NCBI GenBank assembly: GCA_031409335.1
Contig: JANNWY010000093.1
Span: forward strand, 1-37,555
DNA: 37,555 bases
Direction of reading: 5' to 3'
From: Chthoniobacteraceae bacterium
GTDB lineage: Bacteria; Verrucomicrobiota; Verrucomicrobiia; Chthoniobacterales; Chthoniobacteraceae
The notes under the pieces are model-generated. The model did not search any database, was not told the DNA's origin, and saw only the letters and a list, made by a program, of their open reading frames with translations. Numbering within the stretch: position 1 is the stretch's first letter; each line of letters starts with the position of its first letter. Below, piece by piece: positions 5 through 23,064 of the stretch. Both the position numbers and the translations under genes were made by a program.

Positions 5-3000
5 ATGCTCGCGCCCACGGCGGCGACCTTCGGTGCGGAAAACACGTTCGCGTTTCAACAGGACATCGTCTTCAGCGAGATCATGTATCACTTCCCGCCG
101 AATCCCGGCGCGCCGGAAATCCCTGCGGTCACGGCTTCCACGGTGATCGTCCCGCTCGACGCCACCTGGCGCTACAACCGCAGCAACACCAACCTCGGCG
201 CGGCGTGGGCGCAGAGCACGCATCCGGTCGGCGGCGACTGGCTGAGCGGGCCGGCGCTGCTCGGATTCGAGACGACACCCGCCGTGTTGCCGGACACGCT
301 GCGCACTCCGTTCCTCTCGTCGAGTGCGCCGACTTATTATTTCGAGACCGACTTCACCCTCACCGCACAGCAGCTCGCGACGCTCACGGAATTGCGGCTG
401 GAACACGTCATCGACGACGGCGCGGCGTTTTACATCAACGGCGTCGAAATCACGTCCGCGCGCTTCAACCTGCCTGCCGGGTTTTCTTTTGCCACGCCGG
501 GTGTGGGTGTGGTGAATGCCGTGCTGAGCGCGCCGATGGTCATCCCCATCGCGGGCCTGAACCTCCAGGCCGGCCTCAACCGGCTCTCGATCGAGGTGCA
601 TCAGCAGGTCCCTTCGAGCAACGACATGGTGTGCGGCGCGCGGCTGTCGGTCGTGTCGATCGTCACGCCCGCCATGCCAGCCGTCCCCGTGACGGAAAAT
701 CCCGAGGAGTGGATCGAGCTGTTCAACAAAGGCGGAACGTCCGTGAGTCTCGCGGGATGGAAGCTCGATGACGCAGTGGGGTTCACCTTCCCCGCAGGCA
801 CGACGCTCGATCCGGGCGCTTATCTCGTGGTGGCAAAAAATGCGGCGGCGCTGACGGCCAAGTGGCCTGAACACAACACGCGCATCATCGGCAATTATTC
901 GGGTTCACTTTCCAACAATGGCGAACGGATCACGCTCAAGGACGCGAACGGAAATCCCGCCGACGAGACGCGCTACTACGCCGGTGGCGCTTGGCCCGAG
1001 ACCGCCGATGGCGGCGGCGCTTCGCTGGAATTGCGGGACGCGCGCGCGGACAACACGATCGGCTCCGCGTGGGCGGCCAGCGATGAAAGCGGTGATGCGG
1101 CGTGGCAAAACATCAGCTACACGATCGTGGCCGGGCAGACCTTTGGGCAGACGCTTTGGAATGAATTCCGGCTCGGCCTGCACGACAGCGGCGAGTGTCT
1201 CGTGGATGACGTAAGCGTCGTGCGTGTGAGCAATGCGCAGCAGCTCATCCAGGGCGGCAATTTCGAGTCGCTCACGAACAAATGGCGCTTGCTCGGAAAC
1301 CACGGCACGAGCGCGATCGAGACGGAGCCTGGCAATCCGGGCAATCACATCCTGCACATCCGCTCGACCGGCGCGTTCAGTTGGAATCACAACCACATCG
1401 AGACTTCCTACGTGAGCAACACGGCGCTGGTGGACGGGCAAACCTACACGGTGAGCTTCCGCGCGCGCTGGCTCGCCGGCACGAACCAACTCAACAGCCG
1501 CGCGTATTACTCCCGCCTCGCACGCACCACCGAACTGACGATGGCGACACGCATCGGCACGCCGGGCGCGGTGAACTCACGCGGCGTCGCGAACCTCGGC
1601 CCGACGCTCACCGGCCTCGCGCATTCCCCCGTCATCCCGAATGCCGGCGCGCCCGTGACCGTGAGCGCAATCGCGAGCGATCCCGACGGCGTGGCCTCGC
1701 TCACTTTGCGCTACGCGCTGAATGGGAGCGCGTCTTTCGCGAGCGTGGCGATGACTGCGAGCGGCGGCACCTTCTCCGCGCAAATCCCCGGACAGGCCGC
1801 GGGGACCATCGTGCAGTTTTACATCGAAGCCGCCGACAACGCCGCCGCGACTTCCGTGCTCCCCGCCGCGGGCGCAAATTCGCGCGCGCTTTACCTCGTG
1901 AACGACGGCGCCGGCACCGCGCTCAGCGCGCACGAACTGCGCGTCATCATGCTCCCCGCCGATTCGACGAGCCTGCTCGCGACGCTGAACCGCCTGAGCG
2001 ATGCACGCATCGGCGGCACGGCGATCTACCGGCGCGGCGAAGTTTTTTACGATGTCGGCGTGCGGCTCCAGGGCACCGCCGCGGGCCGCATCCGCGATGG
2101 CGAAGAGCACACCGGCTACGATGTCGGCTTTCCTGCCGACCACCTTTTCCGCGGGCTCCACAACAACGTGAACATCGACCGGAGCGGACGCGCACCCGCG
2201 GTCCGGCAGCAGCACGAGATTTATGTGAAGCACCTCTTTCACCGCGCCGGCGTGCCCTGCACGTACGACGACCTCGTCTATTTCATCTCCCCCAGCGGCA
2301 TCCACACCGGCACCGCGATTTTGCAAATGGCGGGCTATGGCGGCGAGTTTGTCTCCTCGCAGTTCGGCGGGGATGGCACGGTCTTCAATCTCGACGGCAC
2401 CTACGAGCCCGGCACCACGACCGACGGGAACTTCGAGAGCCTGAAAAACCCGGTGCCGCTCGCCGCGCAAATCCAGTCCGACTTTACCAACCTCGGGACG
2501 GACAAGGAGCAATACCGCGGACTGCTCGAACAGCGCGCGGGCGGACGGCTGGACGATTTCACGGGCCTCATCCCGTTTTGCCAGGCGATGGGCGACACCG
2601 GGCCGGCCTTCGCCGCGAACATCGCCGCGCGCATGGACGTGAATGAATGGATGCGCTGCGCCGCGATCTATTCGCTGTTCGGCCTCGCCGACTGCTACAT
2701 GACGGGCGGCTTCCCGCACAATCTGCGCGTCCACGTCCCGAGCGACGGGAGGAACGTGACCGCGCTCGCGTGGGACATGGATTTTGTCCACAGCTTCGCC
2801 AGCAACGAACCGCCCATCCTCGCCGGCGGAAATCTGCGGCGCGTCATCGACAACGTCCCCGGCGCGCGCCACGCCTACTACGGCCACCTGTATGACCTCT
2901 GCCAGACGGCTTACAACAGCACCTATATGACGCCGTGGCTCGCGCACTACGGCAGCGTCGTCGGGCAGTCCTACACCGGCAATGCCAGCTACATCGACGC

Positions 3001-4243
3001 GCGCCGCGCCAGCGTGCTTTCTTCTAACCAACTCCCCGCGAGCATCCCTTTTTCGATCACGACCAATGGCGGCGCGGACTTTTCCGTGAACGCCACCACT
3101 GCCGCGCTGGCCGGCAGCGGCTGGATCAACGTGAGCAAAATCCGCCGCGCCGACACCGGTGCCGCGCTCGACCTGACGTGGACCACCGACACCGCGTGGA
3201 CGACGACGATCGCCCTGAACTTCGGCGCGAATCCGATCACGCTGAACGCCTACGACACCAACGGCACGATCGTCGGCACCGATAGCATCACGATCACCAG
3301 CACGCTCCCCGTGCCCACCCCGCGCGACCTCCTGCGCATCACCGAAGTCCACTATCACCCCGCAAATCCGACCACACCCGCCGAACTCGCCGCGAGCGCG
3401 AACCCGGAGGATTTCGAATTCATCGAAGTGCAAAATATCAGCGAGCTGCAACAGGTCGGCATTGGCGGCTGCAAGTTCATCGCTGGAGTGGACGTGACCA
3501 TCCCCGCCGGCACGATCCTGGACGAACTTGAACGCGCTGTCGTCGTCCGCAACGTCGCCGCTTTCCAGGCCCGCTACGGGAACGGTGCGGTCATCCTCGG
3601 CGTCTATGGCCCCGCCGACAGTCTCAGCAATAGCGGCGAAACCATCACGCTCGTCGATGCCACGGGCGCGGTGATCCAGTCATTCACCTACGACGACGCC
3701 TGGCTCCCGCTCACCGACGGCCCCGGTCGCTCGCTCATCGTGCGCGATCCAAGCGCGGCCGTCAGTGCGTGGAATGGCGCAGGTCAATGGGCCGCGAGCA
3801 TCACCCTCGGAGGCACGCCCGGCTTCTCAAACACCGGTCAGTTCGGCACGCAATACGACGGCTGGCGCTACACGTTTTTCTCCGCCGCAGAAGCCGCCAG
3901 CCCCGCGATCAGTGACCCGCTCGTTTCCACCGACGGCGTGACGAACGCTCTGCGCTACGCCCTCGGCTACCTCACCCCGCACCAGCCCACCGCCGCGCTT
4001 TCCGTCATCGGCAACGACGGTACCAACCTCACGATCACCTACCGCCGCACGAAGAACGCCCTCGACGCCACCTTCACCGTCGAAGGCTCGCCCGACCTCG
4101 CGACGTGGACCCCGCTGATCGATCCGCCGACCACGCTCATCGACAACGCCGACGGCACCGAAACGCTCACCGTCCATGACACGATTCCTATGTCCGCCGG
4201 CCCGAAACGCCAGCTTCGGGTGCGCGTGAACTTGCAGCCGTAG
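5..4243 (+). CDS. Large lamin-tail-domain (LTD) / CotH-kinase family protein, 5'-truncated by the window edge
   Basis: LTD motifs (IVFSEIMYH...EEWIELFNK...SLSNNGERITLKD; LRITEVHYHP...DFEFIEVQN). CotH-like motifs FYDVGVRLQG and HNLRVH...AWDMDF. The first residues align to about residue 670 of the paralog at 10141, so the real start lies upstream of the window. Confidence 0.8.
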   Translation: MLAPTAATFGAENTFAFQQDIVFSEIMYHFPPNPGAPEIPAVTASTVIVPLDATWRYNRSNTNLGAAWAQSTHPVGGDWLSGPALLGFETTPAVLPDTLRTPFLSSSAPTYYFETDFTLTAQQLATLTELRLEHVIDDGAAFYINGVEITSARFNLPAGFSFATPGVGVVNAVLSAPMVIPIAGLNLQAGLNRLSIEVHQQVPSSNDMVCGARLSVVSIVTPAMPAVPVTENPEEWIELFNKGGTSVSLAGWKLDDAVGFTFPAGTTLDPGAYLVVAKNAAALTAKWPEHNTRIIGNYSGSLSNNGERITLKDANGNPADETRYYAGGAWPETADGGGASLELRDARADNTIGSAWAASDESGDAAWQNISYTIVAGQTFGQTLWNEFRLGLHDSGECLVDDVSVVRVSNAQQLIQGGNFESLTNKWRLLGNHGTSAIETEPGNPGNHILHIRSTGAFSWNHNHIETSYVSNTALVDGQTYTVSFRARWLAGTNQLNSRAYYSRLARTTELTMATRIGTPGAVNSRGVANLGPTLTGLAHSPVIPNAGAPVTVSAIASDPDGVASLTLRYALNGSASFASVAMTASGGTFSAQIPGQAAGTIVQFYIEAADNAAATSVLPAAGANSRALYLVNDGAGTALSAHELRVIMLPADSTSLLATLNRLSDARIGGTAIYRRGEVFYDVGVRLQGTAAGRIRDGEEHTGYDVGFPADHLFRGLHNNVNIDRSGRAPAVRQQHEIYVKHLFHRAGVPCTYDDLVYFISPSGIHTGTAILQMAGYGGEFVSSQFGGDGTVFNLDGTYEPGTTTDGNFESLKNPVPLAAQIQSDFTNLGTDKEQYRGLLEQRAGGRLDDFTGLIPFCQAMGDTGPAFAANIAARMDVNEWMRCAAIYSLFGLADCYMTGGFPHNLRVHVPSDGRNVTALAWDMDFVHSFASNEPPILAGGNLRRVIDNVPGARHAYYGHLYDLCQTAYNSTYMTPWLAHYGSVVGQSYTGNASYIDARRASVLSSNQLPASIPFSITTNGGADFSVNATTAALAGSGWINVSKIRRADTGAALDLTWTTDTAWTTTIALNFGANPITLNAYDTNGTIVGTDSITITSTLPVPTPRDLLRITEVHYHPANPTTPAELAASANPEDFEFIEVQNISELQQVGIGGCKFIAGVDVTIPAGTILDELERAVVVRNVAAFQARYGNGAVILGVYGPADSLSNSGETITLVDATGAVIQSFTYDDAWLPLTDGPGRSLIVRDPSAAVSAWNGAGQWAASITLGGTPGFSNTGQFGTQYDGWRYTFFSAAEAASPAISDPLVSTDGVTNALRYALGYLTPHQPTAALSVIGNDGTNLTITYRRTKNALDATFTVEGSPDLATWTPLIDPPTTLIDNADGTETLTVHDTIPMSAGPKRQLRVRVNLQP

Positions 4244-10140: not shown

Positions 10141-13100
10141 ATGAAACGAACTCTCCTGAGTCTCCTCTCCCTTCCCGTGATCGCCATCGCTGCGGACAGC
10201 GTCGTCGTTTTCAACGAAGTCCACTATCACCCGGCCAACGAGGTCGCGCAGACGGAGTGGGTCGAGCTGCGCAATTTGCACGGGGTGGATGTCGATATCG
10301 CGGGCTGGCGGCTGGAGGGCGGGATTGCCTACACGTTTCCCGCCGGGACGCGCATCGCGGGCGGGGCGTATCTCGTCGTCGCGAAAGTGCCGGGGCAAAT
10401 CGCGGGCGCGCTCGGGCCATTCACGGGGATTCTCGATAATGGCGGGGAGGAAATCCGCCTCGTGAATCGCAGCGATCGCGCGATGGATGTGCTGAATTAT
10501 TCCGATGATGGCGACTGGCCTGCGGGCGCGGACGGCAGCGGTGCGACGCTCTCGCGGCGCATTGCCTACTCGGCGGATGGCGGGCCGCTGGCGTGGTCGG
10601 CGAGCAATCAGCTCGGCGGCACTCCCGGCGCGGTGAATTTCCCCAGCCCGACCGATCCGCCGACGGTGACGACGCCCATCCCGCTGAATGCGATTTGGAA
10701 ATATCGCGACGACAACGTGGCTCCGCCCGCGACTTGGAAGGACACGGCTTTCGACGACAGCGCGTGGGCCAGCGGCGGCGCGCTGCTCTACGCGGGCAGC
10801 CCGAATATCACCGGCGCTGGCGAGGGTCTGCTCGGCTACTGGCCATTGCAGGAGACATCGGGCACCGCCGTGCCGAATGTGGCGCCTGGCGGGACGAGTG
10901 GGACGATTTTCAATGGCGTGACGTGGGTGAATGACGCGACGCGCGGGCGGGTGCTGAACTTCGACGGCGTGGATGGTTACGTGAACGCCGGGAGCATCCC
11001 GCAGCCCACGATGGCGAACAATTTTACGTGGTCGTTCTGGGGTTACTCGGCCTCGACCGGGAACACGAGTGTCGTGCTCGGCAACCGTTTCTCGCCGACG
11101 AACGGCGTGGGTTTCAATCCGCTGGAGTTCGTGAAGTTCACGACGGCGTCGTTTGAATTTTACCGGGAGGGCGCGCAGGAGGGGATCGACTATGCGGACA
11201 TGCTCGTAAACGTGTGGACGCATCACGCGGTGGTGAAGCAGGGCGCGACGCTTAACTACTATCGAAACGGAGCCGCCGCCGGGTCGCGGACGATCACCCA
11301 GGCGCTGCGCAACCCACAGCCTTTCTACTTCGGCGGCGATCAGGTGAATGAAAACTGGGGCGGGCGCATGGACGACGTGGCGGTGTGGACGAAGGCGCTG
11401 CCGGCGGCGTCCATCACGGGCCTCGCGAATGGCACGCTGACACCGCTCACCGCGCCGACTGGGAGCACGGCGGGCACGCTCACGACTGCGCTCGCGCTCG
11501 GGCCGACGACGCACTATTTCCGCCGCGCGTTCACTTTCAACGGCGACAAAACGCGCACGACGCTCGCGTTCCAGCATCTGCTCGACGATGGCGCGGTCGT
11601 GTATCTCAACGGCGTCGAAGTGCTCCGCGTGAACATGCCCGGCGGTGCGATCGCGCACGGGACGCCGGCCTCGAGCGACGTCACGGGATCTTTTCTGGTC
11701 TCGAACGTCGCCATCCCGTCCAACGATCTCGTGGTCGGGACGAACGTGCTCGCGGTCGAGGTGCATCAGCACACGGCGAATCCCGATCTGGTTTTCGGAG
11801 CGTCGCTCACCGCGACCGAGACGGCGGGGCCGACGACATTCCCCGGCGGCGCGCTCGTGTTGAATGAAATCGGCGGCGCGAACGACGTGACCTTCCGCGT
11901 GGAGCTGGCGAATCTCACCGGCTCCGCGGTCAGCCTCGCGGACTACCAACTGCGCGGCAGCAACGGCGGCAGCTCCACGCTCAGTGGCTCGCTCTTGCCG
12001 GGCGCGCTGCTTTCACTCGACGAGACACAAATGGGTTTCCGCCCGATCGACGGCGAGAGGCTTTTCATCGTGAATACTGTCGCGAACACCCTCGGCGACG
12101 GACGCACCGTGACGACTGGTTTGCGCGGGCGCAACTCGGCGGGCGTGTGGGCGCATCCGAGCGTGGCGACCTTCGGCTCGGCGAATGCCTTCACGACGCA
12201 CGACGAGATCGTGATCAACGAAATCATGTACAATGCGCCGGGCACGTCGCCGGAGCAGTGGGTCGAGCTTTACAACAAAAGCGGCGGAGCCGTGGACATC
12301 GGCGGGTGGCATTTCACGGACGGCATCGGCTACACCTTTCCGCCGGGCACGATGCTCGGCGCTGGCGAATACGCGCTGGTGGTTTGGGACGTGGCTGCTT
12401 TCAACGCGCTGCATCCCGCACTTCCGCGTGTCTTCGGACCGCTCAGCGGCGGACTCAGTGGAAAGGGCGAGCGCGTGCGGCTGCGCGATGCGGACGACAA
12501 TCTCGCGGACGAACTGGAGTATTTCACCGGTGGGACGTGGCCGGAATTCGCGGACGGCGGCGGCTCATCGCTGGAGCTGAAGAATCCGAACGCCGACAAT
12601 ACGAACGCGGTCGCGTGGGCCGGGAGCAACGAAGTCGCCAACGGCTCGTGGGTGAATGTGAGCTACGACTTCAGCGGAGCGAATCTCGAAAGCAATGTGA
12701 CGGATTACAGCGAGCTTCTCGTCGGCATGGTGGCGGGCGGCGAGGCGTTTATCGACGACCTCGAAGTCATCGAAGACCCGCTCACCATTCCGCGCTCGCT
12801 GCTTGCGAATGGCAATTTCTCAGGCGGCACCGCGGCGTCGTGGCGCTTTCAGGGAAATCACCGCACGAGCACCGTGGTGGACGACCCGTCATCGCCGGGC
12901 AACAAGGTGCTGAAAATCGTCGCGACGGGCTACACCGAGCACATGTCGAATCACTGCGAGACGACGCTGCGCAGCGGCGCGACGCTCCCGTGGCCGATCA
13001 ACCCGGCGAAGACCTATCGCATCAAGTATCGCGCGCACTGGGCTGGCGGCGGAAACCGTCTGCAAACGCGGCTCTACTTCAATCGCGGGGCGCGTCAGGA

Positions 13101-15840
13101 ACTCCTGCCGATGCCCACGACGGGCGGCACGCCCGGCCTGCAAAATTCGCGGTTCGTCGCCAACACCGGCCCCACTTTTTCCGGCACTACACACGCGCCC
13201 GCCGTGCCCGGAGCCTCACAAGCGGCGGTCGTGAGCGCGCGCATCGCGGACAGCGACGGCGTCACTTCCGCCACGCTTTTCTACTCGGTGAATGAAGGCG
13301 CATTCGTTCCGGTGGGGATGACGAACACCGGCGGTGTGTGGAGCGGGACCATCCCCGGCCAGGCGCTCAACGCGAAGGCGCAGTTTTACATTCAGGCCGC
13401 CGACGCACTCGGCGCGACCGCGACCTTCCCCGCGAACGGCACCGCGGGCCGCGCGATGATTCCGTGGAACGACAGTCAGGCCGCGCTCACGCTCCCGACC
13501 GGAGTGAGTCCGCACAATGTGCGCATCGTCATGACCACGACCGACGCGAACAGCAGCCTCCTCGCGCTCAACAACGTGATGAGCAACGAATACCGCCCCT
13601 GCACGGTCATCTACGACGAGCGCGACATTTACTACGGCGCGGGCGTGCATCTCAAAGGCAGCGAGCATGGCCGCGCGAAGTTCTCCTCGCGCACGGGCTT
13701 TCACCTCAGCTTTTCACCGGACCAACTTTTCCTCGGACAGCACTCGGATGTCGCGGCGGATCGCAGCGGCGCGGGCGATCAATTTTCGCAAAAAGAGATG
13801 CTCGTGAAACGCACGCTCAACGCTGTCGGCGGCATCCCGGCGAGCGAGGATGATTTGTGCCGCCTTATCGCGCCCGGCGTCGCGACCGGGCCGGCGATTT
13901 TGATCAAGGCGAAGGTGGACTCGAATGAGTTCCTCGATAACTGGCTGCCGAACGGGGGCGACGGGACCTTCTTCGAGTACGAGCTGACTTACTCGATGTT
14001 CACGGGAGCCATCGCGACTTCCACTGACAACGGCACTTGGGAGGGCAACAAGCTCACGCAGGACAGCGCCGCACCGGGCGTCGGCGTGCGCAAGCTCAAT
14101 CCGGGTCTCAGCAAGGAAGAATATCGCTGGTACTGGCTCATCAAAAATAATCGCAGCGCTGACAACTACGCGCCGCTCATCACCGCGCTCACCGCGCTCG
14201 GGCAGGGGAGCGGACCGACGTTCATCACTCAAACCAACGCGCTGATCGACGTGGACGGATGGCTGCGCAACATGGCCGGGCCGGTCGCGTGGAGCGCGGG
14301 CGACAACTACGCTTTCAACTCCGCGCACAACGCGCTCCTTTTCGTGAAGCCCGACGGGAAAACGCTCTACGTGCCGTGGGATATGGACTTCACCGCGACC
14401 GGCGGCGCGACTGCGGGAATCACCGGGATCAACACCGAGATGGACAAGTTCGTCGGCGACGCCGGAAACCGCCGCGCGTATTACGGGCACTTGCTCGACT
14501 TGTGCAACCGCGCGTTCAACACCGGCTACCTCTCGTATTGGGCGCAGCATTACACAAAGTTCGTGAACGAAGACCTCACAGGCTTCATGTCGTTTGTCGC
14601 AGCGCGCGAGACGCACATCCGCAACACCATCAACGCGGCGATTCCGAACGTGGCCTTCGCCATCGCACCCGCGCCGCCCGCGAATGTCGCCGCGAATTCC
14701 GTCACGCTCACCGGCAGCGGTTGGGTGAACATCCGCGAGTTCCGCCGCGCCGACACCGGTGCCGTGCTGCCCGGGACGTGGACCGGCAACACCGCATGGT
14801 CGCTCAGCTACGCGCTGGTCCCCGGCCCGAATGCAATCACGCTGCAATTCTACGACTTCCAGGGCGCGCTCATCGGCACCGCGACGGCGAACGTCAACAA
14901 CACCCTCACGCCACCCACGCCGCGCGACTGGCTGCGCATCACCGAAGTCCACTACCACCCCGCGGATCCCTCGACGCCCGGAGAACTCTCCGCGAGCCCG
15001 GACCCCGACGACTTCGAGTTCATCGAACTGCAAAACCTCGCCAGCACTACGCTCGACGTGAGCGGGTGCAAATTCACCGTCGGAGTGGACGCGACCATCG
15101 GCGGCAGCACGACCCTCGCCTTGCTCGAACGCGTCGTCGTCGTTCGCAACGTCGCCGCCTTCCAAGCGCGCTACGGGAACGGCCCGCGCATCATCGGCGC
15201 GTATGGCCCCGCCGACAGCCTGAGCAACGGCGGAGAAACGATCACGCTTGTGGACGCAACCGGCGCGGTGATCCAGAGCTTCACCTACGACGACGCATGG
15301 TTCCCGCTCACCGACGGCCCCGGACGTTCGCTCGTCGTGCGAGATCCGAGCGCGGCCGTCAGCGCGTGGAATGGCGCAGGTCAATGGGCCGCGAGCACCA
15401 CGCTCGGCGGCACGCCCGGTGCATCGAACACCGGCCAATTCGGCACGCAATTCGACGGCTGGCGCTACACCTATTTCACCCCCGCCGAACTCGCGAACCC
15501 CGCAATCAGCGGCGCGCTCGTTTCCACCAACGGCGTGAAGAACGCCCTGCGCTACGCCCTCGGCTACTACGCGCCACAACAACCCGCCGCCGCGCTCACC
15601 GTCATCGGCAGCGACGGCACATTTCTCACGATCACCTACCGCCGCACGAAGAACACCCTCGACGCCAACTTCACAATCGACGGCACCCCCGACCTCGTGA
15701 CATGGACCCCGCTTATGAATCCACCGACCACGACAATCGATAACGGTGACGGCACCGAAACCCACACCGTCCGCGACACCATCCCGATTTCCGCTGGCAC
15801 TAAACGCCACCTCCGCGTGCGCGTGACTTTGCAGCCGTAG
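10141..15840 (+). CDS. 1899-aa secreted lamin-tail / LamG / CotH-kinase family protein
   Basis: Signal peptide and several LTDs (VVFNEVHYHP...EWVELRN; IVINEIMYN...QWVELYN; LRITEVHYHP). LamG (LLGYWPLQE...WTHHAVV...GRMDDVAVW). CotH motifs GVHLKGS and HNALLF...VPWDMDF. Confidence 0.85.
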   Translation: MKRTLLSLLSLPVIAIAADSVVVFNEVHYHPANEVAQTEWVELRNLHGVDVDIAGWRLEGGIAYTFPAGTRIAGGAYLVVAKVPGQIAGALGPFTGILDNGGEEIRLVNRSDRAMDVLNYSDDGDWPAGADGSGATLSRRIAYSADGGPLAWSASNQLGGTPGAVNFPSPTDPPTVTTPIPLNAIWKYRDDNVAPPATWKDTAFDDSAWASGGALLYAGSPNITGAGEGLLGYWPLQETSGTAVPNVAPGGTSGTIFNGVTWVNDATRGRVLNFDGVDGYVNAGSIPQPTMANNFTWSFWGYSASTGNTSVVLGNRFSPTNGVGFNPLEFVKFTTASFEFYREGAQEGIDYADMLVNVWTHHAVVKQGATLNYYRNGAAAGSRTITQALRNPQPFYFGGDQVNENWGGRMDDVAVWTKALPAASITGLANGTLTPLTAPTGSTAGTLTTALALGPTTHYFRRAFTFNGDKTRTTLAFQHLLDDGAVVYLNGVEVLRVNMPGGAIAHGTPASSDVTGSFLVSNVAIPSNDLVVGTNVLAVEVHQHTANPDLVFGASLTATETAGPTTFPGGALVLNEIGGANDVTFRVELANLTGSAVSLADYQLRGSNGGSSTLSGSLLPGALLSLDETQMGFRPIDGERLFIVNTVANTLGDGRTVTTGLRGRNSAGVWAHPSVATFGSANAFTTHDEIVINEIMYNAPGTSPEQWVELYNKSGGAVDIGGWHFTDGIGYTFPPGTMLGAGEYALVVWDVAAFNALHPALPRVFGPLSGGLSGKGERVRLRDADDNLADELEYFTGGTWPEFADGGGSSLELKNPNADNTNAVAWAGSNEVANGSWVNVSYDFSGANLESNVTDYSELLVGMVAGGEAFIDDLEVIEDPLTIPRSLLANGNFSGGTAASWRFQGNHRTSTVVDDPSSPGNKVLKIVATGYTEHMSNHCETTLRSGATLPWPINPAKTYRIKYRAHWAGGGNRLQTRLYFNRGARQELLPMPTTGGTPGLQNSRFVANTGPTFSGTTHAPAVPGASQAAVVSARIADSDGVTSATLFYSVNEGAFVPVGMTNTGGVWSGTIPGQALNAKAQFYIQAADALGATATFPANGTAGRAMIPWNDSQAALTLPTGVSPHNVRIVMTTTDANSSLLALNNVMSNEYRPCTVIYDERDIYYGAGVHLKGSEHGRAKFSSRTGFHLSFSPDQLFLGQHSDVAADRSGAGDQFSQKEMLVKRTLNAVGGIPASEDDLCRLIAPGVATGPAILIKAKVDSNEFLDNWLPNGGDGTFFEYELTYSMFTGAIATSTDNGTWEGNKLTQDSAAPGVGVRKLNPGLSKEEYRWYWLIKNNRSADNYAPLITALTALGQGSGPTFITQTNALIDVDGWLRNMAGPVAWSAGDNYAFNSAHNALLFVKPDGKTLYVPWDMDFTATGGATAGITGINTEMDKFVGDAGNRRAYYGHLLDLCNRAFNTGYLSYWAQHYTKFVNEDLTGFMSFVAARETHIRNTINAAIPNVAFAIAPAPPANVAANSVTLTGSGWVNIREFRRADTGAVLPGTWTGNTAWSLSYALVPGPNAITLQFYDFQGALIGTATANVNNTLTPPTPRDWLRITEVHYHPADPSTPGELSASPDPDDFEFIELQNLASTTLDVSGCKFTVGVDATIGGSTTLALLERVVVVRNVAAFQARYGNGPRIIGAYGPADSLSNGGETITLVDATGAVIQSFTYDDAWFPLTDGPGRSLVVRDPSAAVSAWNGAGQWAASTTLGGTPGASNTGQFGTQFDGWRYTYFTPAELANPAISGALVSTNGVKNALRYALGYYAPQQPAAALTVIGSDGTFLTITYRRTKNTLDANFTIDGTPDLVTWTPLMNPPTTTIDNGDGTETHTVRDTIPISAGTKRHLRVRVTLQP

Positions 15841-15951
15841 CACCGTCGCGCCTCCCACAGGCTAGCGTCGTCCACTCGATAGTTGCGCAGCATTTCCGCC
15901 TGCGACCATTGCCATCAGCGCGCCAGCCATGGGTCGCGAATTTTCCAGGCG

Positions 15952-17124
15952 CTACTTGCTGTCGCTTCGCGACATTGCCAGCCACGGATGTTCGAGCGCG
16001 GTGGTGGCGGTGCTGCGAGTTGCGGGGTCGATCGTGAGGAGTTGCTGGAGAAAGGCGGCGGCTTCGGCGCGGGCGGGGGCGTTGAGCGTGCTGCGGCGGC
16101 GGAGGCGTTCGCGGATCGTGATTCGGTCAATGGTGGGGCGAAAGCGGAGCGCGCCGTCGGGCTCGAAGTAGGAGGCGCGAAATTTTGCGGCGGCGATTTG
16201 GTCGGCGGGGATCGGGCCGCGGAGGGCGGTGATGAGGAGGATGTGCTCGTAGTTGAGCGCGAGGTCGAGGAGGTCGTCGGCGCCTTTCGCACGCTTCCAT
16301 GCGCGGTCGGCGAGGTCGCGTGCGGTCAGGGCGCGCGGTGCGCTGGCGATGGCTTCGGCGTGTTTCCAGAGCGGTTTGTGGGAACGCGACAGCCGTTTTT
16401 CGTGGAGTGCGCGCGCGGACCAGACGGTGGCGAAACGGCCGCGGCCGAGTGCCCTTTCGAGATGGTATTTCCCGGCGACGATGTCGGCGCGGCGATGTTG
16501 CTCGGCGAGTTCCTCGGCGTCGTCGGCGAGCACGGTGGCGGCGAGTTCGGTGGGCGGGGCGTCGTGGCTGAATTCGCGATATTTTCGCGCGGCGGCGCGG
16601 CGCGGGGCGAAGAGAAGGTGGCCGGTGAGCATTTCGAACACGGTGCAGCCGAGCGCCCACAAATCCATTTCCACGCGGAGCGGTGCGCCGAGGATGACTT
16701 CGGGCGGGGTGTATTCGCGCGAGCCGAATCCACCGCCCTGCCGGAGTTGGTTCCGCGCGCTGCCGAGGTCGGCGAGGCAGGCAGTGCCGGTGCGCGCGTC
16801 GTAGAGAATGTTGTCGGGCTTGACGTCAGTGTGCGCGATTCCGCAGCGGTGCAGGCGGTCGAGCGCGGTGAGAATCTGGCGGGTGACGCGGCGGACGCGA
16901 GCGAGCGGCAGCGGCCCGCGGTGGAGCGCGGCTTCGAGGCTGCGACCGTGTTTTTCAAAAGCCATGCAGATGTGGCCGTCGTGCAGGAAGGATTCGTGCA
17001 GGGTGACGATCTCGGGACACGGCCCCGACTCGCGCACGCGGTGGTGGACGTAGATTTCCCAAGTCGCCGCGCGGGCGTAGCGGCGGCGCTGGATTTTTAA
17101 CGCGATGGCGGGCGCGGCGTTCAT
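15952..17124 (-). CDS. SRPK/CMGC-like Hanks-type Ser/Thr protein kinase with an internally relocated Gly-rich loop (390 aa)
   Basis: IALKIQ (beta3 Lys), HICMAFE, HTDVKPDN, ADLG, SREYTPPEVILG, DLWALGCTVFEMLTG, DPATRSTATTALEHPWL. GKYHLERALGRGRFATVW lies at residues 218-235. The in-frame upstream extension to 17301 is REP-derived. Confidence 0.85.
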   Translation of the reverse strand: MNAAPAIALKIQRRRYARAATWEIYVHHRVRESGPCPEIVTLHESFLHDGHICMAFEKHGRSLEAALHRGPLPLARVRRVTRQILTALDRLHRCGIAHTDVKPDNILYDARTGTACLADLGSARNQLRQGGGFGSREYTPPEVILGAPLRVEMDLWALGCTVFEMLTGHLLFAPRRAAARKYREFSHDAPPTELAATVLADDAEELAEQHRRADIVAGKYHLERALGRGRFATVWSARALHEKRLSRSHKPLWKHAEAIASAPRALTARDLADRAWKRAKGADDLLDLALNYEHILLITALRGPIPADQIAAAKFRASYFEPDGALRFRPTIDRITIRERLRRRSTLNAPARAEAAAFLQQLLTIDPATRSTATTALEHPWLAMSRSDSK

Positions 17125-17149
17125 GCTGGGAACGGGAGTGGGCGATCTC

Positions 17150-17269
17150 GTAGCGCGGGCTTCCTGCCTGCTGTATCGCGGGCCTCCGGCCTGCGAGACG
17201 CCTGCCGGTCGTGGGCGCCCGAGGCAGGCTGGAAGCCCGCGATACGGCAGGCGGGGACGCCTGCGCCAC
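17150..17269. repeat. REP cluster of four ~22-bp units (two forward, two inverted)
   Basis: gtagcgcgggcttcctgcctgc (17150-17171), gtatcgcgggcctccggcctgc (17173-17194), inverted gcaggctggaagcccgcgatac (17224-17245) and inverted gcaggcggggacgcctgcgccac (17247-17269). Confidence 0.75.
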
Positions 17270-17284
17270 AGTGACGGTTTTGGC

Positions 17285-18613
17285 TCATTGGTTGTCCACA
17301 AAGGCGCGGCGGATTTCGTAGAGGATGCGGCTGATAAGGCGCATGTCTTCGGTGACGATGCGGGCTTCGCCGGTCATTTCCTGCCGGAATTGCAGCGGGC
17401 GGTGGAAGCTCGTGGTGAGCGGGTGCGGGAGAGCGATGAGCACGAGATGCGCGCCGTCACGCGCGACCATCGAGACGCTTTGCACGGTGCCGGTGACGAG
17501 GCCGAATTCCTTGTAGGGATAGTCGTCGAGCCGGATGCGGACGGTCTGGCCGGGTTTGATTTTTCCGGCGCCGCCCGTTTTTACCGACATGCGGCCGAGT
17601 AGCGCGGAGGTTTCCGGGACGATGAGGAAAACCTGCCGCGCGGCGGTGACGAATTGCTGGTCGCTCCAGAAGTCGTAGAACGCGGTGATGCCATCCGCCG
17701 GGGCGCGCAGGACGTGGTCGGCGTCCCACACGTCGATTTCGCCGCGGAGTTTGTTGAGTTGCGCGCGCAGTTGTTCGCGCGCGGTGCGGAGGGCTTCGGT
17801 GCGCTCGTGTTCGAGGTCGCGAAGTTCCTTTTCGATTTCCGCGGCTTCGATTTCGGCGTCGGTCGCGGCGCGCGCAGCGACGGTGCCGGCGCGCATTTGC
17901 TGGATCATCGCTTTTTCCTGCTCCTGAAGATCGGAGATGCTGATGAGGCGGCTGTCGTCGAGCGATTTGGCGCGGTCGTATTTGGCGCGGGCGAGTTCGA
18001 GTTCGCGGGTCATCAGCGTGCTTTGTTCGCGCAGCGAGGCGACTTGTGTGCGCTTGCCTTCGATTTGCTGACGCAAAAGCGCGCCGGCTTTTTCGGCGTA
18101 GTCATCGCCGAGACGGCTGCCGAGCTGGCGGAAGGTCTGGAGGAAATCGGCGTAGCTTTGCTGCAACTTTCCGAGGCCGTCCTCGGGCTGAAAGCGGAGG
18201 TTCAACGCGGACGCGTCGCTGCCGATCACGGCCGCGAGTTGCGCGAGTTTTTCACCCAGCGGTAGCACGGTGGCGGAGCGCGCGGGGCTTTCGACGATGG
18301 CGAGGATCTCGCCTTTTTTCACCGCCTGCCCTTCGCGCACGCGCAGGCTTTCGAGATGCCCGCTCTGCCGCGCGACGACTTCGACGACGGGCTGCGTGCC
18401 GGTGATGCTGACGCGCCCGGTGATGGTGTCGGGATATTTGATGATGATGCTGAGCGCGAGGATGAGCGCGAGCGCGGCGGCGAGGACGAGGATGCCGGAA
18501 CGCAGCAGGAGGTGCGGCGGGCGGGCCATGAATTCATGCACGTCGGCGCTGAGCGCGCCGGGGGCGAGATGGGCGGGGACGAGGGCGGTGGTGGGGTCCG
18601 GGTCAGCGGGCAT
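17285..18613 (-). CDS. HlyD family secretion adaptor for the peptidase-containing ABC transporter
   Basis: N-terminal TM (ILVLAAALALILALSIIIKYPD), VREGQAVKKGEILA, coiled coil, LRAPADG, GKIKPGQTVRIRLDDYPYKEFGLVTGTV. Confidence 0.9.
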   Translation of the reverse strand: MPADPDPTTALVPAHLAPGALSADVHEFMARPPHLLLRSGILVLAAALALILALSIIIKYPDTITGRVSITGTQPVVEVVARQSGHLESLRVREGQAVKKGEILAIVESPARSATVLPLGEKLAQLAAVIGSDASALNLRFQPEDGLGKLQQSYADFLQTFRQLGSRLGDDYAEKAGALLRQQIEGKRTQVASLREQSTLMTRELELARAKYDRAKSLDDSRLISISDLQEQEKAMIQQMRAGTVAARAATDAEIEAAEIEKELRDLEHERTEALRTAREQLRAQLNKLRGEIDVWDADHVLRAPADGITAFYDFWSDQQFVTAARQVFLIVPETSALLGRMSVKTGGAGKIKPGQTVRIRLDDYPYKEFGLVTGTVQSVSMVARDGAHLVLIALPHPLTTSFHRPLQFRQEMTGEARIVTEDMRLISRILYEIRRAFVDNQ

Positions 18614-18741: not shown

Positions 18742-20970
18742 TTAGCGCGCATGGGCGGCGGTGTTTTCGAGTTCGAGCTGGTTTCGCACGAGGCGGTAGT
18801 AGGTGTCTCCGCGCGCGACGAGGCCGCTGTGGTCGCCGACTTCGACGATGCGGCCCTGGTCCATGACGACGATCTGATCGGCGTCGCGCACGGTGCTGAG
18901 GCGATGCGCGATGACGACGACGGTGCGGCCTGCGGCGAACTCGCGGAGATTGGAAAGAATGGTGCTTTCGTTGTTCGCATCGAGGGCGCTGGTGGCTTCG
19001 TCGAGGAAGAGAAATTCGGGATTGCGATAGACGGCGCGGGCGAGGAGCAGGCGCTGCTTTTGTCCGCCGCTGAGGCCCTGGCCTTCCGCGCCGACCATCG
19101 TCTCGACGCCGTTCGGCAGCGTGCGCAGGTAGTCGCCGAGATTTGCGAGCATGATGGCGAGCCGCAGCCGCAGCGGGTCGATCGGCTCGCTGCCGGGCGC
19201 GATATTGCGCGCGACGCTGCTGGAGAAAATGTGGCCGTCCTGCATCACCACGCCACAGCGCTGCCGCCAGGCCTGGCCGTCGAAGGCGACGAGCGGAATG
19301 TTGCCGAGAAAAATTTCGCCCGCCGTGGGTTGGTAAAGGCCGAGCAGCAGCTTGAGCAGCGTCGTCTTTCCACTGCCGCTGGCGCCGACGATGGCGGTGA
19401 CTTTTCCCGAGGGAATCCGGAGGTCGATCTCGCGCAGCACGTCGGCGTGGCCCGCGCCGGGGTAGCGAAAGGTGAGCCCGGCGAGTTCGAGCGTCGCACC
19501 TTCGGGGATCGCGACGCTGGTGCCTTGCGGCGATTCTTCGTCGCGATGGCGGTAGATTTCCTGCATCCGCTCGAGGCTGAGGCGGGCGTCCTGCGCGGAG
19601 TAGATGAACTCCATGAGCCGCCCGATCGGTGAGTTGAGCTGGCCGACGATGTATTGCGTGGCGAGCATCATGCCGAAGGTCATTTCGCCCTGGATGACGG
19701 CGCGCGCGGCGAGGAAGGCGATGAGGATGTTGCGAAAATTCGACGCGAGAAAAAGGCCGATGCGCTGCGCCTGCTTGAGCGCGAGGCTCTGCGCTTCGAT
19801 GCGGTAAGAGCGCACGGCGAGGTGCTCCCAGTCCCAGCGTTTCGCGCGCTGGAGACCGTGGATTTTGATCTCGGGCATCGCGTGGACGATCTCGAAAAGG
19901 GTGTCGCGTTCCTTGGCTTCGAGGGTGAAACGTTTGTAGTCGAGGTTGCGCCGCCTTTTCAAAAAGAGACCGAGCCAGACCGCGGAGAGAATGGTGAAGA
20001 AGAGGAAGACGCCGAGGATTTGCCAGCTATAGAGCGCGAGCACGAAGGCGAAGACGACGAAGCTCAGCAGCGAAAAAATAATGTCGAGCGACGACGACAT
20101 GAGGAAGCTCTTCACGCGGCGGTGATCGCCGATGCGCTGCATGATGTCGCCCGCGGTGCGGCTCTCGAAAAACGGGACGGGCAGGCGGAGCAGCTTGCCG
20201 AGAAAATCGGCGATCATCGCGATGCTGACGCGCGCACCGACATGCAGCAGCAGCCAGCTTCGGATCATGTCCGCGACCGTCTGGCTGAGCGAAAGCATGA
20301 GCTGCGCGGCGAGCAGCACGTAGATGAAATTCAGGTCGAGATTGCCGATGCCCTGATCGACCACGGCCTGCGTGAGAAAGGGCAGGATCAGCTCGATGCC
20401 GAGGCCGACGAACATGCCGAGCAGCACTTGGAAAAGCAGGCGTTTGTGCGGGCGCAGGTAGTTGAAGAAAAACGCGAGGCCGCGCCCGTCGGCGTCCGCG
20501 TCGTCGCGGCCCGAGGCGCTCTGCTCGTGGAAGGCGGGCGTGACTTCGAGCAGCAGGTAAATGCCGGGCGCGTCCTCCACGAGCGGGGTCTCCGGCGGGG
20601 CGCTGGCGCGGATGAATTCGGCGTGCGTGTAGTCGATGAGGCCGTAGGCGGGATCGGCGACGCGGACCTTCTTGCGGGTGATTTCATAGACCACGACGAA
20701 GTGATCGTTCTCCCAATGCGCGATGCACGGGAGCGGGGCTTCTTCGCGCAGGCGCTTGAAGCTGAGCTTTACCGCAAGCGAGCGCAGGCCGAGGCGTTCC
20801 GCCGCTTCGGAGATGCCGAGCAGATTCACGCCGCCCTTGCCGATCTGGCAAAGCTCGCGCAGCCGCTCCTGCGGGAACTCGCGCCCGAAATGCGAGCAGA
20901 CCATCCGCAGCGATGCAGGCCCGCAATCCATGGCGTCGAGCTGGGCGTGGTAAGGGAAGCGGGATTTCAT
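18742..20970 (-). CDS. Peptidase C39 domain-containing ABC transporter (PCAT, SunT/LagD/ComA-like)
   Basis: QLDAMDCGPASL (catalytic Cys), IAHWENDHFVVV (catalytic His), ADPA, TM domain, Walker A GASGSGKTT, LSGGQKQR, FLDEATSALD, IAHRLST. Confidence 0.95.
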   Translation of the reverse strand: MKSRFPYHAQLDAMDCGPASLRMVCSHFGREFPQERLRELCQIGKGGVNLLGISEAAERLGLRSLAVKLSFKRLREEAPLPCIAHWENDHFVVVYEITRKKVRVADPAYGLIDYTHAEFIRASAPPETPLVEDAPGIYLLLEVTPAFHEQSASGRDDADADGRGLAFFFNYLRPHKRLLFQVLLGMFVGLGIELILPFLTQAVVDQGIGNLDLNFIYVLLAAQLMLSLSQTVADMIRSWLLLHVGARVSIAMIADFLGKLLRLPVPFFESRTAGDIMQRIGDHRRVKSFLMSSSLDIIFSLLSFVVFAFVLALYSWQILGVFLFFTILSAVWLGLFLKRRRNLDYKRFTLEAKERDTLFEIVHAMPEIKIHGLQRAKRWDWEHLAVRSYRIEAQSLALKQAQRIGLFLASNFRNILIAFLAARAVIQGEMTFGMMLATQYIVGQLNSPIGRLMEFIYSAQDARLSLERMQEIYRHRDEESPQGTSVAIPEGATLELAGLTFRYPGAGHADVLREIDLRIPSGKVTAIVGASGSGKTTLLKLLLGLYQPTAGEIFLGNIPLVAFDGQAWRQRCGVVMQDGHIFSSSVARNIAPGSEPIDPLRLRLAIMLANLGDYLRTLPNGVETMVGAEGQGLSGGQKQRLLLARAVYRNPEFLFLDEATSALDANNESTILSNLREFAAGRTVVVIAHRLSTVRDADQIVVMDQGRIVEVGDHSGLVARGDTYYRLVRNQLELENTAAHAR

Positions 20971-21104: not shown

Positions 21105-21320
21105 CTAGCACTTCGGTGGCGGTGGGCAGCCGCAGTTGCCGCCGCCGCTGCCGGATTTGCTGCCACCGGATTTGCTGCCGCCGGATTTACTGCTGCCGGA
21201 TTTGCCGCTCTTGCTCGATCCGCTCTTGCTCTTTTTGCCTTTTTTTCCGCCACCGCCGGTGACGGCGGCAGGGGCATTGATCGCGTCAGAAGCGAATTGG
21301 TCTAGGATGCTCTTTTTCAT
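21105..21320 (-). CDS. Double-glycine-leader precursor peptide with Lys/Ser/Gly-repeat core (putative RiPP precursor)
   Basis: Leader MKKSILDQFASDAINAPAAVTGG, then a 48-aa core with six KSG motifs and a CGCPPPPKC tail. SD-like AGAAAGG 9 nt upstream of the ATG. Directly upstream of a C39 transporter. Confidence 0.85.
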   Translation of the reverse strand: MKKSILDQFASDAINAPAAVTGGGGKKGKKSKSGSSKSGKSGSSKSGGSKSGGSKSGSGGGNCGCPPPPKC

Positions 21321-21501: not shown

Positions 21502-23064
21502 ATGAACTATTCTAAGTGTCGGGATTTCGGAATTGCCGTTTGGGTTTTTGTCTTTGGTCTGCTGAGTGTGCTTGCTTCCGCCCAAACCGTGCTGACTAGC
21601 AACGTGCCGCTGGCAAATCTATCTGGCAGCGCGGGCAGCCAGGTGTTTTACCAAATCGCCGTCCCCACTGCGCAGACCAAGCTGGATATCCGCATCACCG
21701 GGTCGGGCGACTGCGATCTCTACGTGAAGCGGGGCTCGCAGCCGACGACATCGAGCTACGACTACCGGCCTTACACGAACACCAGCAATGAAACGGTCAC
21801 AGTGACGAATCCGGTGGCGGGCAATTGGTTCATCATGCTGCGCGGCTACAAGGCGTATTCCGGCCTGACGCTGGTCGCGATTCTCACTGGCGGCAGCACC
21901 ACGACGGCGGTGGCGACACCGACTTTCAGTCCGGTCGGCGGCACGTATCCGCAGCAGCAAAACGTGACGATCCGCACGGTCACGGCGAACGCCATCATTC
22001 GCTACACCACCAACGGAACTGACCCGACGGCGAGTTCGACGGTGTATAGCGCGCCGATCATCTTGAGCAGCACCACGACGCTGAAAGCGCGGGGTTTTCT
22101 CAGCGGGATGACGGATAGCGCAGTGGCGACGGCTACCTTCACCATCTCCGGCAGCGGCGTGAATATCCTGCAAAACGGGAGCCCGCGGGCCAACCTCGCG
22201 GCAGCCAAGGACAGTAAGACCTACTACCAGATTTCGGTGCCGGCGGGGCAGAGCGCCCTGGCCATCACCATCGCCGGCGGCGCGCAAAGCGGGGACTGCG
22301 ATCTGTATGTGCGTCGCGGTTCACAGCCCACGACTGCTACCTACGACTATCGGCCTTACCTCGGCGGGAGCAATGAAGCGGTCTCCGTATCGAGCCCGGT
22401 CGGCGGCGACTGGTTCATCATGCTCCATGGCTATACGACCTACAGCGGGGTGACCCTGACTGCGACTTACTCGGCCACGGCGAAGCCCGATCTCACGCCC
22501 TACACCGGCTCGCTGAACGCTTACACGACGACCGAGACCTTTAGTGGAAACGCCTGCGATGTGACTGAGGGGCTGGTCGTCTCTGGCACACGGAGGCTGC
22601 TCCGCTTCACCACCGAGACGCGCAACGTCGGCACGGCCGATCTCGTGCTGCGCAGCCCGGCGAACAACCCGCTCTTCACCTACGCGCCGTGCCATGGTCA
22701 CTATCACTTCAACAACTTCGCCGAATACCGGCTCATCAACTCGGCGGGACAGCAGGCGGCGATCGGGCAGAAAGTCGGCTTCTGCCTGGAGGATGTTTCG
22801 CGGTGGAATCCGGCGGCCAATTCGCGCGCTCAGTACGATTGCGACTATCAAGGCATCCAGGCCGGATGGTCGGACCTCTATACGCGAAATCTGCCGGGGC
22901 AATGGGTGGACATCACCGGCGTCGCTCCGGGCACTTACGTGCTGGAGATGCGGCTCGATACGGCCAATCGCATCGACGAAGCGAACGAGACAAACAACCT
23001 GGCGCGCGTCGAAGTGGTGATCGGCGCCGCCAATGGGGCGGTGACTTCGCGTCCGCTGCCCTGA
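21502..23064 (+). CDS. Secreted lysyl oxidase (LOX) family protein with two PPC domains and a CHB_HEX_C/FN3-like domain
   Basis: Signal peptide (ASA|Q). Two PPC repeats (GDCDLYVKRGSQPT...YDYRPY) and an ATPTFSP...IRYTTNGTDPT domain. LOX motifs LLRFTTETRNVG, CHGHYH, KVGFCLED, QGIQAGWSDLY...QWVDITGVAPGTYVL...EANETNN. Confidence 0.88.
   Translation: MNYSKCRDFGIAVWVFVFGLLSVLASAQTVLTSNVPLANLSGSAGSQVFYQIAVPTAQTKLDIRITGSGDCDLYVKRGSQPTTSSYDYRPYTNTSNETVTVTNPVAGNWFIMLRGYKAYSGLTLVAILTGGSTTTAVATPTFSPVGGTYPQQQNVTIRTVTANAIIRYTTNGTDPTASSTVYSAPIILSSTTTLKARGFLSGMTDSAVATATFTISGSGVNILQNGSPRANLAAAKDSKTYYQISVPAGQSALAITIAGGAQSGDCDLYVRRGSQPTTATYDYRPYLGGSNEAVSVSSPVGGDWFIMLHGYTTYSGVTLTATYSATAKPDLTPYTGSLNAYTTTETFSGNACDVTEGLVVSGTRRLLRFTTETRNVGTADLVLRSPANNPLFTYAPCHGHYHFNNFAEYRLINSAGQQAAIGQKVGFCLEDVSRWNPAANSRAQYDCDYQGIQAGWSDLYTRNLPGQWVDITGVAPGTYVLEMRLDTANRIDEANETNNLARVEVVIGAANGAVTSRPLP

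Follow-up and report, generated by a model that had tools for sequence, protein, structure and literature searches.

A bacterial SRPK-like kinase family with its glycine-rich hairpin encoded between helices alphaF and alphaG, within a conserved peptide export module

Kinases of the SRPK group phosphorylate Arg-Ser (RS) repeats, and to our knowledge protein kinases are taken, throughout the superfamily, to begin their fold with beta1, beta2 and beta3 in this fixed order. Protein kinases also act on ribosomally made peptides: those of the class III and IV lanthipeptide synthetases (LanKC and LanL) are presented as Hanks-like enzymes carrying out leader-guided Ser/Thr phosphorylation of ribosomal precursors (PMC10604976), and PMC12639078 gives a cyanobactin kinase domain as another kinase of RiPPs, peptides that ribosomes make and that are modified after translation. 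Here we describe a kinase gene of a Chthoniobacteraceae bacterium, found on a stretch of 37,555 nucleotides (nt) of contig JANNWY010000093.1 (assembly GCA_031409335.1; the whole stretch is referred to as the window), the product of which starts at strand beta3 and has the glycine-rich beta1-beta2 hairpin, or subdomain I, in an insert far downstream. This is a real, conserved and unusual kinase topology, a trait of a family and not an artefact.

As parts of one explanation, which we judge as a whole and consider probable, the motifs indicate a non-circular permutation, with the hairpin encoded inside the insert between alphaF and alphaG and the chain starting at beta3, and an active SRPK-like Ser/Thr kinase. 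Two alignments are used throughout, A1 with 28 close sequences of the kinase family and A2, a wide set of 23 sequences with identity down to 30%. The features of the kinase, with the evidence for each, are the following.

15952..17124, minus strand: kinase gene P0001, 390 residues, SRPK-like Hanks kinase starting at beta3 (translation, Pfam, SRPK1 alignment)
17089..17109, minus strand: strand beta3, AIALKIQ, residues 6-12, with the ATP-binding Lys10 (A8 and K10 invariant in A1 and A2)
16810..16833, minus strand: catalytic loop HTDVKPDN, residues 98-105 (H98, D100, K102 and N105 invariant)
16762..16770, minus strand: DLG, the DFG equivalent, residues 119-121 (D119 invariant in A1 and A2)
16624..16668, minus strand: helix alphaF, DLWALGCTVFEMLTG, residues about 153-168 (helix in the AlphaFold2 model, aligned to alphaF of SRPK1 and Sky1p)
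16255..16596, minus strand: family-specific insert between alphaF and alphaG, residues 177-290, made of an ascending segment, the hairpin and descending helices (unaligned to SRPK1, present in all relatives)
16570..16584, minus strand: KYREF motif of the ascending arm, residues 181-185, a predicted leader contact (conservation 0.93-0.97)
16399..16488, minus strand: transposed subdomain I (beta1, Gly-rich loop, beta2), residues 213-242, core GKYHLERALGRGRFATVW (AlphaFold2 strands, conservation, profile searches, SRPK1 alignment)
16255..16284, minus strand: GADDLLDLAL motif leading into alphaG, residues 281-290, a predicted leader contact (G281, A282, D284, D287 and L288 invariant in A1)
15976..16254, minus strand: alphaG to alphaI with a MAP-kinase-like insert of the SRPK type, residues 291-383 (aligned to SRPK1 306-397 and Sky1p 248-338)

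The protein begins MNAAPAIALK, with only five residues before beta3 (ALK), and has all the catalytic motifs; K10, E23, H98, D100, K102, N105, D119, P141 and E142 are invariant in both alignments. Pfam assigns it to Pkinase (PF00069) with 134 bits against a gathering threshold of 31.7 and finds no further domain in its 390 residues. The best matching stretch begins at profile position 42, and in relatives the match begins at positions 22-25, so that the part of the profile that covers beta1 and beta2 is missing at the N-terminus. An N-terminal subdomain I before beta3 is a hallmark of Hanks kinases; here it was not found, and the motif lies at residues 226-235 instead. A preliminary description, made from the DNA of the window by itself, had proposed that the protein starts at beta3 with no N-terminal Gly loop, that the sequence upstream derives from a repetitive extragenic palindromic (REP) element, and that the core of subdomain I lies at nt 16420-16473, residues 218-235, in an insert. 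All three statements stand. The in-frame stretch upstream contains no Gly loop; it is occupied by a palindromic repeat of 166 nt, for which the genome has 11 further matches, where relatives have only 0-53 nt; and the coordinates given for the core are right.

The insert is 114 residues long, and the share of the kinase that does not align to SRPK1 is 390 minus about 275 residues. Within the insert the hairpin stands between alphaF and NYEHILLITAL (alphaG, residues 291-301). HMMER splits the match to SRPK1 (5mxx_A): residues 13-110 of the query align to chain residues 75-184, residues 291-382 to 306-397, and residues 213-242 (ADIVAGKYHLERALGRGRFATVWSARALHE) to 34-63, the Gly-loop hairpin of SRPK1. 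The hairpin thus follows alphaF here and precedes beta3 in SRPK1. The same identity was reached from within the genome. A profile hidden Markov model (HMM) of 41 columns was cut from the family alignment of 28 sequences around the hairpin and run, with filters off, against the 48,228 six-frame open reading frames (ORFs) of the bacterium's own genome. It gave nine non-self matches with E<0.01 (best 9.9e-07), and all nine are the GxGxFGxVW hairpin (GxGGFGxVW) of ordinary long Hanks kinases, 10-13 residues before VALK, which identifies the internal segment as a homologue of subdomain I. Searched against Pfam, a 50-residue piece with the hairpin matched no family and a 115-residue piece gave one match at chance level only.

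Four hairpin residues, G227, G229, V234 and W235, do not vary in A1; in the wide set the invariant ones are L226, G227 and W235, and G229, F231 and V234 are kept in at least 90% of the sequences. The weighted mean conservation of the hairpin (0.64) is on a par with that of the kinase outside the insert (0.62). The conserved positions, GxG and the Val, are those that line ATP in ordinary kinases, which is our chief reason for thinking that the hairpin has kept its normal function.

The structural models agree with this assignment. With the 28-row alignment, AlphaFold2 gave a mean predicted local distance difference test score (pLDDT) of 93.4 and a predicted template modelling score (pTM) of 0.92, with strands at residues 7-12, 42-48, 51-57, 220-228 and 232-239, the last two being the hairpin strands (pLDDT 93-97), and with helical insert arms (196-207; 250-260, 268-280 and 285-302). 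A member only 31% identical, P0147, was modeled with pLDDT 85.5 and pTM 0.85, and its hairpin strands fall at 258-266 and 270-277 (block pLDDT 91-95). SRPK1, SRPK2 and Sky1p, of the CMGC group, take the top ranks in Foldseek and VIA-align and so have the closest fold, and they are also the best solved relatives by sequence (Sky1p, E 6.4e-32; SRPK1, 3.6e-27). VIA-align to SRPK1 (Z 31, root-mean-square deviation 2.2 Å, 274-275 residues) pairs model residues 1..384 with 100..655; hence all but the insert superposes on SRPK1, from just past the hairpin of SRPK1 itself. In this arrangement the hairpin would pack on beta3 and complete the N-lobe, a placement favoured because GxG and Val are near-invariant and the monomer models are confident.

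The topology is common to the whole family. A word-based search returned 282 relatives, of which the 120 listed share 50-78% identity with the query along 86-99% of the length, most of them having 380-400 residues; an exhaustive profile search added about 20 clusters of 30-56% identity, each of them one end-to-end profile stretch. In the pooled set of 163 family sequences, the best hairpin-profile match lies more than 100 residues past the catalytic loop in every case (the 28 sequences from which the profile was built match it by construction), the beta3 motif begins at residue 3-33 (median 6), and none has a hairpin in an N-terminal extension. The unusual topology seen in the preliminary description, a relocated hairpin in the alphaF-alphaG loop, therefore holds family-wide, with the permuted order kept in 163 of 163 sequences down to 30% identity, and the possibility of misassembly that had been raised there was addressed with assembled reads as well: one contig in each of the Logan runs X1 and X2, which belong to one study and are perhaps the source sample, spans positions 15900-17261 with no differences, breaks occurring only within the repeat element. 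One member of the family, P0121 (716 residues), has an extra N-terminal kinase-like domain of about 330 residues, with weak APH and ABC1 Pfam matches, before the permuted kinase.

The distribution of the family is patchy, and the names of the sources mention Chthoniobacteraceae and Planctomycetota. With this query, the kinase was found in none of 300 other genomes sampled from the phylum. Among 60 relatives searched (completeness 67-100%), it is present in one of the four other genomes of the genus (G304, 55% identity) and in none of the remaining 56, which include 32 of the same family; these negatives do not prove absence. A scan of genome contigs with the whole-kinase alignment, which rests on generic kinase patterns, returned only partial matches to ordinary kinases (29-41% identity) and no family member, and a search of the ESM Atlas with the kinase matched general kinase clusters only and found no model of this protein there. 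The other 39 kinase matches in the bacterium's own genome reach at best E 1.4e-13; the family is far closer to SRPK/CMGC kinases than to these. As to origin, the simplest path would be that a copy of the hairpin was inserted in the alphaF-alphaG loop and the N-terminal one was then lost. No intermediate of such a transposition was found among the sequences examined. That this loop tolerates insertions is shown by P0239, an SRPK-like protein whose elements stand in the normal order and in which a long acidic stretch, rich in Asp and Ser, has been inserted between alphaF and alphaG at the corresponding site.

What does such a kinase act on? Its surroundings point to an exported peptide. Upstream of the kinase in the direction of transcription, the window contains the following.

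17125..17290, no strand: palindromic repeat element of 166 nt inserted between the HlyD gene and the kinase gene, the stretch between the two genes being 17125..17284 (other copies in the genome on both strands)
17285..18613, minus strand: HlyD-family membrane-fusion protein, directly upstream of the kinase (Pfam HlyD_3)
18742..20970, minus strand: ATP-binding cassette (ABC) exporter with a C39 peptidase domain, a peptidase-containing ABC transporter (PCAT; Pfam Peptidase_C39, ABC_membrane and ABC_tran)
21105..21320, minus strand: precursor peptide of 71 residues with leader MKKSILDQFASDAINAPAAVTGG and a Lys/Ser/Gly-repeat core ending CGCPPPPKC (ORF and leader comparison)

The order of transcription on this one strand is precursor, C39 ABC transporter, HlyD, repeat element, kinase; in G304 it is HlyD, kinase (overlapping by 4 nt), a small ORF and the C39 ABC transporter. 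A scan of metagenomes with the family-specific segment yielded 37 loci at no fewer than five levels of identity to the query (72-73, 57-59, 51-56, 48-49 and 33-35%). In 24 of the 25 loci that have at least 200 nt upstream, the gene next to the kinase on that side encodes HlyD, and 0-53 nt separate the two, the exception being locus L126; since HlyD ends so close to the start of the kinase, these 24 loci leave no room for an N-terminal hairpin. The PCAT is encoded in 20 and a precursor ORF in 22 of the 37 loci, in two gene orders, as in the window and in G304. A peptide with a double-glycine leader, a C39 ABC transporter and a HlyD partner are thus encoded together, as is characteristic of PCAT systems, and the kinase belongs to a conserved module of double-glycine-leader peptide, C39-peptidase ABC exporter, HlyD and kinase. 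Contigs of a further run, X4, stop at positions 17125 and 17282 and have other repeat letters of the GTTTGGC type in between, so the spacer between HlyD and kinase differs between strains.

The small ORFs have a common leader, M(K/R)KSILDQFAADAINAPE(T/A)VTGG, with 12 invariant positions in 16 sequences and, at its end, a double glycine, the cutting site of C39 peptidases. Their cores are of two types. One consists of Arg-Thr repeats (for example, RTRTRTRTR and RRTHRRTHRHTR) and has no Cys; the other consists of Lys-Ser or Lys-Thr repeats, in many cases followed by a tail rich in Cys, the Lys/Ser type having 1-5 Cys. The core in the window is GGKKGKKSKSGSSKSGKSGSSKSGGSKSGGSKSGSGGGNCGCPPPPKC. 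In 22 distinct cores, 163 of 204 Ser/Thr residues stand beside K, R or H, and the composition is R 24%, G 19%, T 13%, S 10%, K 8%, H 6% and less than 1% Asp and Glu together. By analogy with SRPKs, there is strong circumstantial evidence that such basic-hydroxyl repeat peptides are what the kinase phosphorylates: an SRPK-like kinase is fixed beside exported basic-hydroxyl repeat peptides, and the precursor is therefore probably its substrate.

Prediction of the complex of kinase (with A1) and precursor (with its alignment A4), together with ATP and Mg, gave scores of 0.82, 0.83 and 0.81, against 0.00 in all three controls. The mark applied is reached by 116 of 157 solved complexes and by 2 of 215 mismatched pairs, a benchmark that is a rough guide here because our own alignments were used and ATP and Mg were included. 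The runs share at least 43% of their contacts, with a pLDDT of at least 50 for the partner. The confident interface joins precursor residues 2-25 (the leader) and 65-71 to kinase residues 18-29 (alphaC), 179-198, 249-260, 272-292, 318 and 328. In these models F9 of the leader contacts kinase residues 285, 288, 289 and 292, at the GADDLLDLAL motif, leader residues 4-5 contact residues 182-184 of KYREF with an expected error below 1 Å, and the hairpin stays outside the predicted leader interface. Within the insert, interface residues have a conservation of 0.58 (n=39) and the other residues outside the hairpin 0.46 (n=45; permutation p 0.013). Solved SRPK1-peptide complexes exist, to judge from their titles; no solved complex contains this insert, which makes it unlikely that the score reflects structures memorized by the model. 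As the predicted leader touches both alphaC and the arms, the arms would lie against the N-lobe, which fits delivery of the hairpin there. The models thus support binding of the conserved leader by the arms of the insert. The preliminary description missed both this apparent leader binding and the operon, the conservation of which gives the clue to the substrate.

The best explanation, and in our opinion a probable one, is that a stand-alone peptide kinase, guided by the leader and having its Gly-loop transposed, phosphorylates (R/K)(T/S) repeats at multiple sites and that the product is exported. The ascending (residues 177-212) and descending (243-290) arms of the insert would start at the base of the C-lobe and lift the hairpin to the N-lobe, where it would take its usual place beside beta3 and cover ATP. 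KYREF, GADDLLDLAL and helix alphaC would form a site for the double-glycine leader; Ser and Thr of the (R/K)(T/S) repeats in the core would be phosphorylated as RS repeats are by SRPKs; and, from the known roles of these families, the C39-peptidase ABC transporter with HlyD would remove the leader and export the product. The phosphates may mask the charge of a cationic peptide until export, or they may make a phosphate-rich extracellular peptide. One may go further and suppose a substrate-gated kinase, in which the transposition has a function of its own: the Gly-rich lid hangs on the insert that also takes up the leader, and docking of the leader sets the arms and closes the lid, so that the ATP site is complete only with substrate, and the product is a polyphosphorylated cationic repeat peptide exported as a new class of ribosomal peptide. 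We regard this extended version as rather doubtful; if true, it would be a bacterial counterpart of SR-domain phosphorylation and, with the Lys/Ser/Gly-type cores, reminiscent of the silaffins of diatoms.

Several points weigh against the explanation of a leader-guided peptide kinase. Many of the 37 metagenome loci come from related samples and hence are not independent. The link to the operon is not universal: L126 (2047-3285, plus strand), the most distant locus-encoded member with 412 residues and 35% identity, has no HlyD upstream, and its upstream neighbours lie on the other strand and match no Pfam family. Since it keeps the kinase architecture without the neighbours of the module, the kinase family is wider than the PCAT-linked clade. 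In the window itself the repeat element splits HlyD from the kinase, and their coupling may be disturbed. Mean-field direct coupling analysis (164 and 159 sequences, effective number about 94) was dominated by gap and indel artefacts and gave no usable signal between hairpin and N-lobe. In the complex models only leader residues 2-25 and the last seven residues of the precursor are placed with confidence, and no Ser or Thr of the core lies in the active site. Finally, the tails of the Lys/Ser-type cores are rich in Cys, and the phosphates could thus be a stage on the way to another modification.

That last point leads to the question of what else the phosphorylation could serve. The true substrate might be another protein, such as the exporter, HlyD or a two-component system, or phosphate might only be an intermediate, for example one that is eliminated to give dehydro-residues, with which the cysteines at the C-terminus would then react as they do in lanthipeptides. 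Genes for an OmpR-type regulator and a HAMP/HisKA sensor kinase do lie directly upstream of the HlyD-kinase-precursor-PCAT module in L107 (3622-5633), L118 (3-908) and L091 (11055-11966), a layout that is that of peptide-pheromone or bacteriocin regulons, and G304 has a HATPase_c gene in the neighbourhood; the absence of the core from the modeled active site and the cysteines of the Lys/Ser cores would fit these readings too. However, the composition of the repeats matches substrates of the SRPK type, Cys is entirely absent from the Arg-Thr cores, the Pfam-scanned neighbours of the kinase include neither a lyase nor a cyclase gene, and NCBIfam models of lanthionine synthetases score far below their cut-offs. 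We consider a different substrate or a mere intermediate unlikely.

The hairpin itself could be put to another use or to none. In a domain-swapped dimer, which the preliminary description had put forward beside folding back in cis, it would complete the N-lobe of the second subunit, and the arms (about 40 and 50 residues) are long enough that they could reach a neighbouring subunit; the confidence of the monomer models as wholes is not what would be expected if a main element had no place in the monomer, and we give the swapped dimer only a small chance. A comparably small chance goes to the view that the insert is purely a peptide-binding domain and the hairpin a relic, the protein being a kinase without a Gly-rich lid or a pseudokinase scaffold. 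Some atypical kinases lack a normal Gly loop, and the predicted leader site does fall in the insert, but the hairpin is not part of that site, is conserved as much as the catalytic core, has as its near-invariant residues those by which ordinary kinases line ATP (GxG, and the Val two positions ahead of the last residue of beta2), and accompanies catalytic residues all of which are invariant. As for an assembly error, a recent rearrangement or a pseudogene in a single genome, the oddity itself and the repeat element beside the start are all that could suggest it; the reading frame is intact, relatives from many assemblies share the order without exception, and contigs of two runs cover the ORF without difference. 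Misassembly and pseudogene are excluded on these grounds, and the chance of an artefact of this sort is negligible.

Some other genes near the module may be mentioned. A secreted-looking protein with a lysyl-oxidase domain, two PPC domains and a chitobiase C-terminal domain adjoins it in the window (21502-23064, plus strand) and in G304 (L091, 7012-8805, minus strand). With an exported peptide rich in Lys next to it, a lysine oxidase is suggestive, but the connection is limited to this genus. Lysyl-oxidase-like and HEAT genes, which are neighbours in the window and in G304, were considered as members of the module and rejected, as none of the 37 metagenome loci matched. In one lineage, a gene of the histidine-phosphatase family lies just downstream of the kinase (L119, 5628-6095, minus strand), and its product might act on the phosphopeptide. 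On the other side of the kinase gene, the window encodes two very large secreted-type proteins with lamin-tail domains (10141-15840 and 5-4243, both plus strand); in the one of 1899 residues, the gene of which is convergent with that of the kinase, Pfam recognizes a Laminin_G_3 domain as well and, weakly, CotH kinase.

A full-text literature search for kinases with a permuted Gly-loop and for such peptide systems found no description of the family or the system, and the parts of PMC12599244 consulted contain no passage on it. A candidate precedent, RevK ('Reverse Kinase'), in which the name alone suggested a reversed order, is listed with the motifs VAIK, E, LAxLH, HxDxxxN, DFG and DLA in the normal order, with no GxGxxG marked (Kannan et al. 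2007, PMC1821047). We rejected it: besides the normal motif order, it has HGDLHLGN, DCIE and an APH-like LAxLH, as against HTDVKPDN and DLG here. The likeness to LanKC and LanL is one of task only, their kinases being domains of large lyase/cyclase fusions with the normal order, whereas the present kinase is stand-alone and permuted; it scores 45.5 bits against a cut-off of 650 and 29.8 against 575 with NCBIfam models of lanthionine synthetases. No NCBIfam model reaches its cut-off for the kinase, and three precursors have no match at all.

The likeness to double-glycine export systems of the NHLP type is broader, with a PCAT that has the QxxxxDCG Cys motif, a partner of the HlyD type and GG as the last residues of the leader in common. 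Among NCBIfam models, those for the NHLP exporter and for the HlyD that goes with it come nearest; all matches are below the curated cut-offs (431 against 853 bits). We know of no double-glycine export system with a Hanks kinase as a fixed fourth gene or with (R/K)(T/S) repeat cores. For the displaced ATP-site element, the nearest parallel is in the WNK kinases, in which the catalytic Lys has moved from beta3 to the Gly loop; WNK, in work ascribed to Xu et al. in 2000, reportedly shows that part of the ATP site can function when the chain provides it elsewhere. There a single residue was relocated within the N-lobe, while here a whole two-strand element has moved by about 210 residues.

It is now apparent that a conserved natural family breaks the beta1-beta2-beta3 order and yet keeps every catalytic residue. 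If the hairpin packs as proposed, an ATP lid can come from a distant loop, and the family would offer a natural system for studying the part of the lid in catalysis and regulation. It is also a trap for domain-based annotation, to which a permuted kinase looks truncated. The SRPKs are its closest counterparts. Both have the HTDxKPxN catalytic loop, the ADLG and alphaG motifs and the MAP-kinase-like insert. The leader is predicted to bind at the alphaF-alphaG loop, at alphaG and at the insert that follows alphaG, presumably the same region as the docking groove of SRPK1. The SRPK spacer between catalytic loop and DFG is not found in this kinase, which has 13 residues between N105 and D119, whereas the SRPK-like P0247 and P0204 have long spacers. 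The SRPKs have their hairpin at the N-terminus; here it is in the alphaF-alphaG loop of a bacterial protein of 390 residues. The presumed substrates are alike in being repeats of a basic and a hydroxyl residue, those of SRPKs being the RS domains of splicing factors and those of the present kinase, if our reading is right, exported leader peptides with RT, KS or KT repeats. The gene context thus suggests that exported peptides with (R/K)(T/S) repeats are phosphorylated at many sites in the SRPK manner, under guidance of the leader, a question that can be put to experiment.

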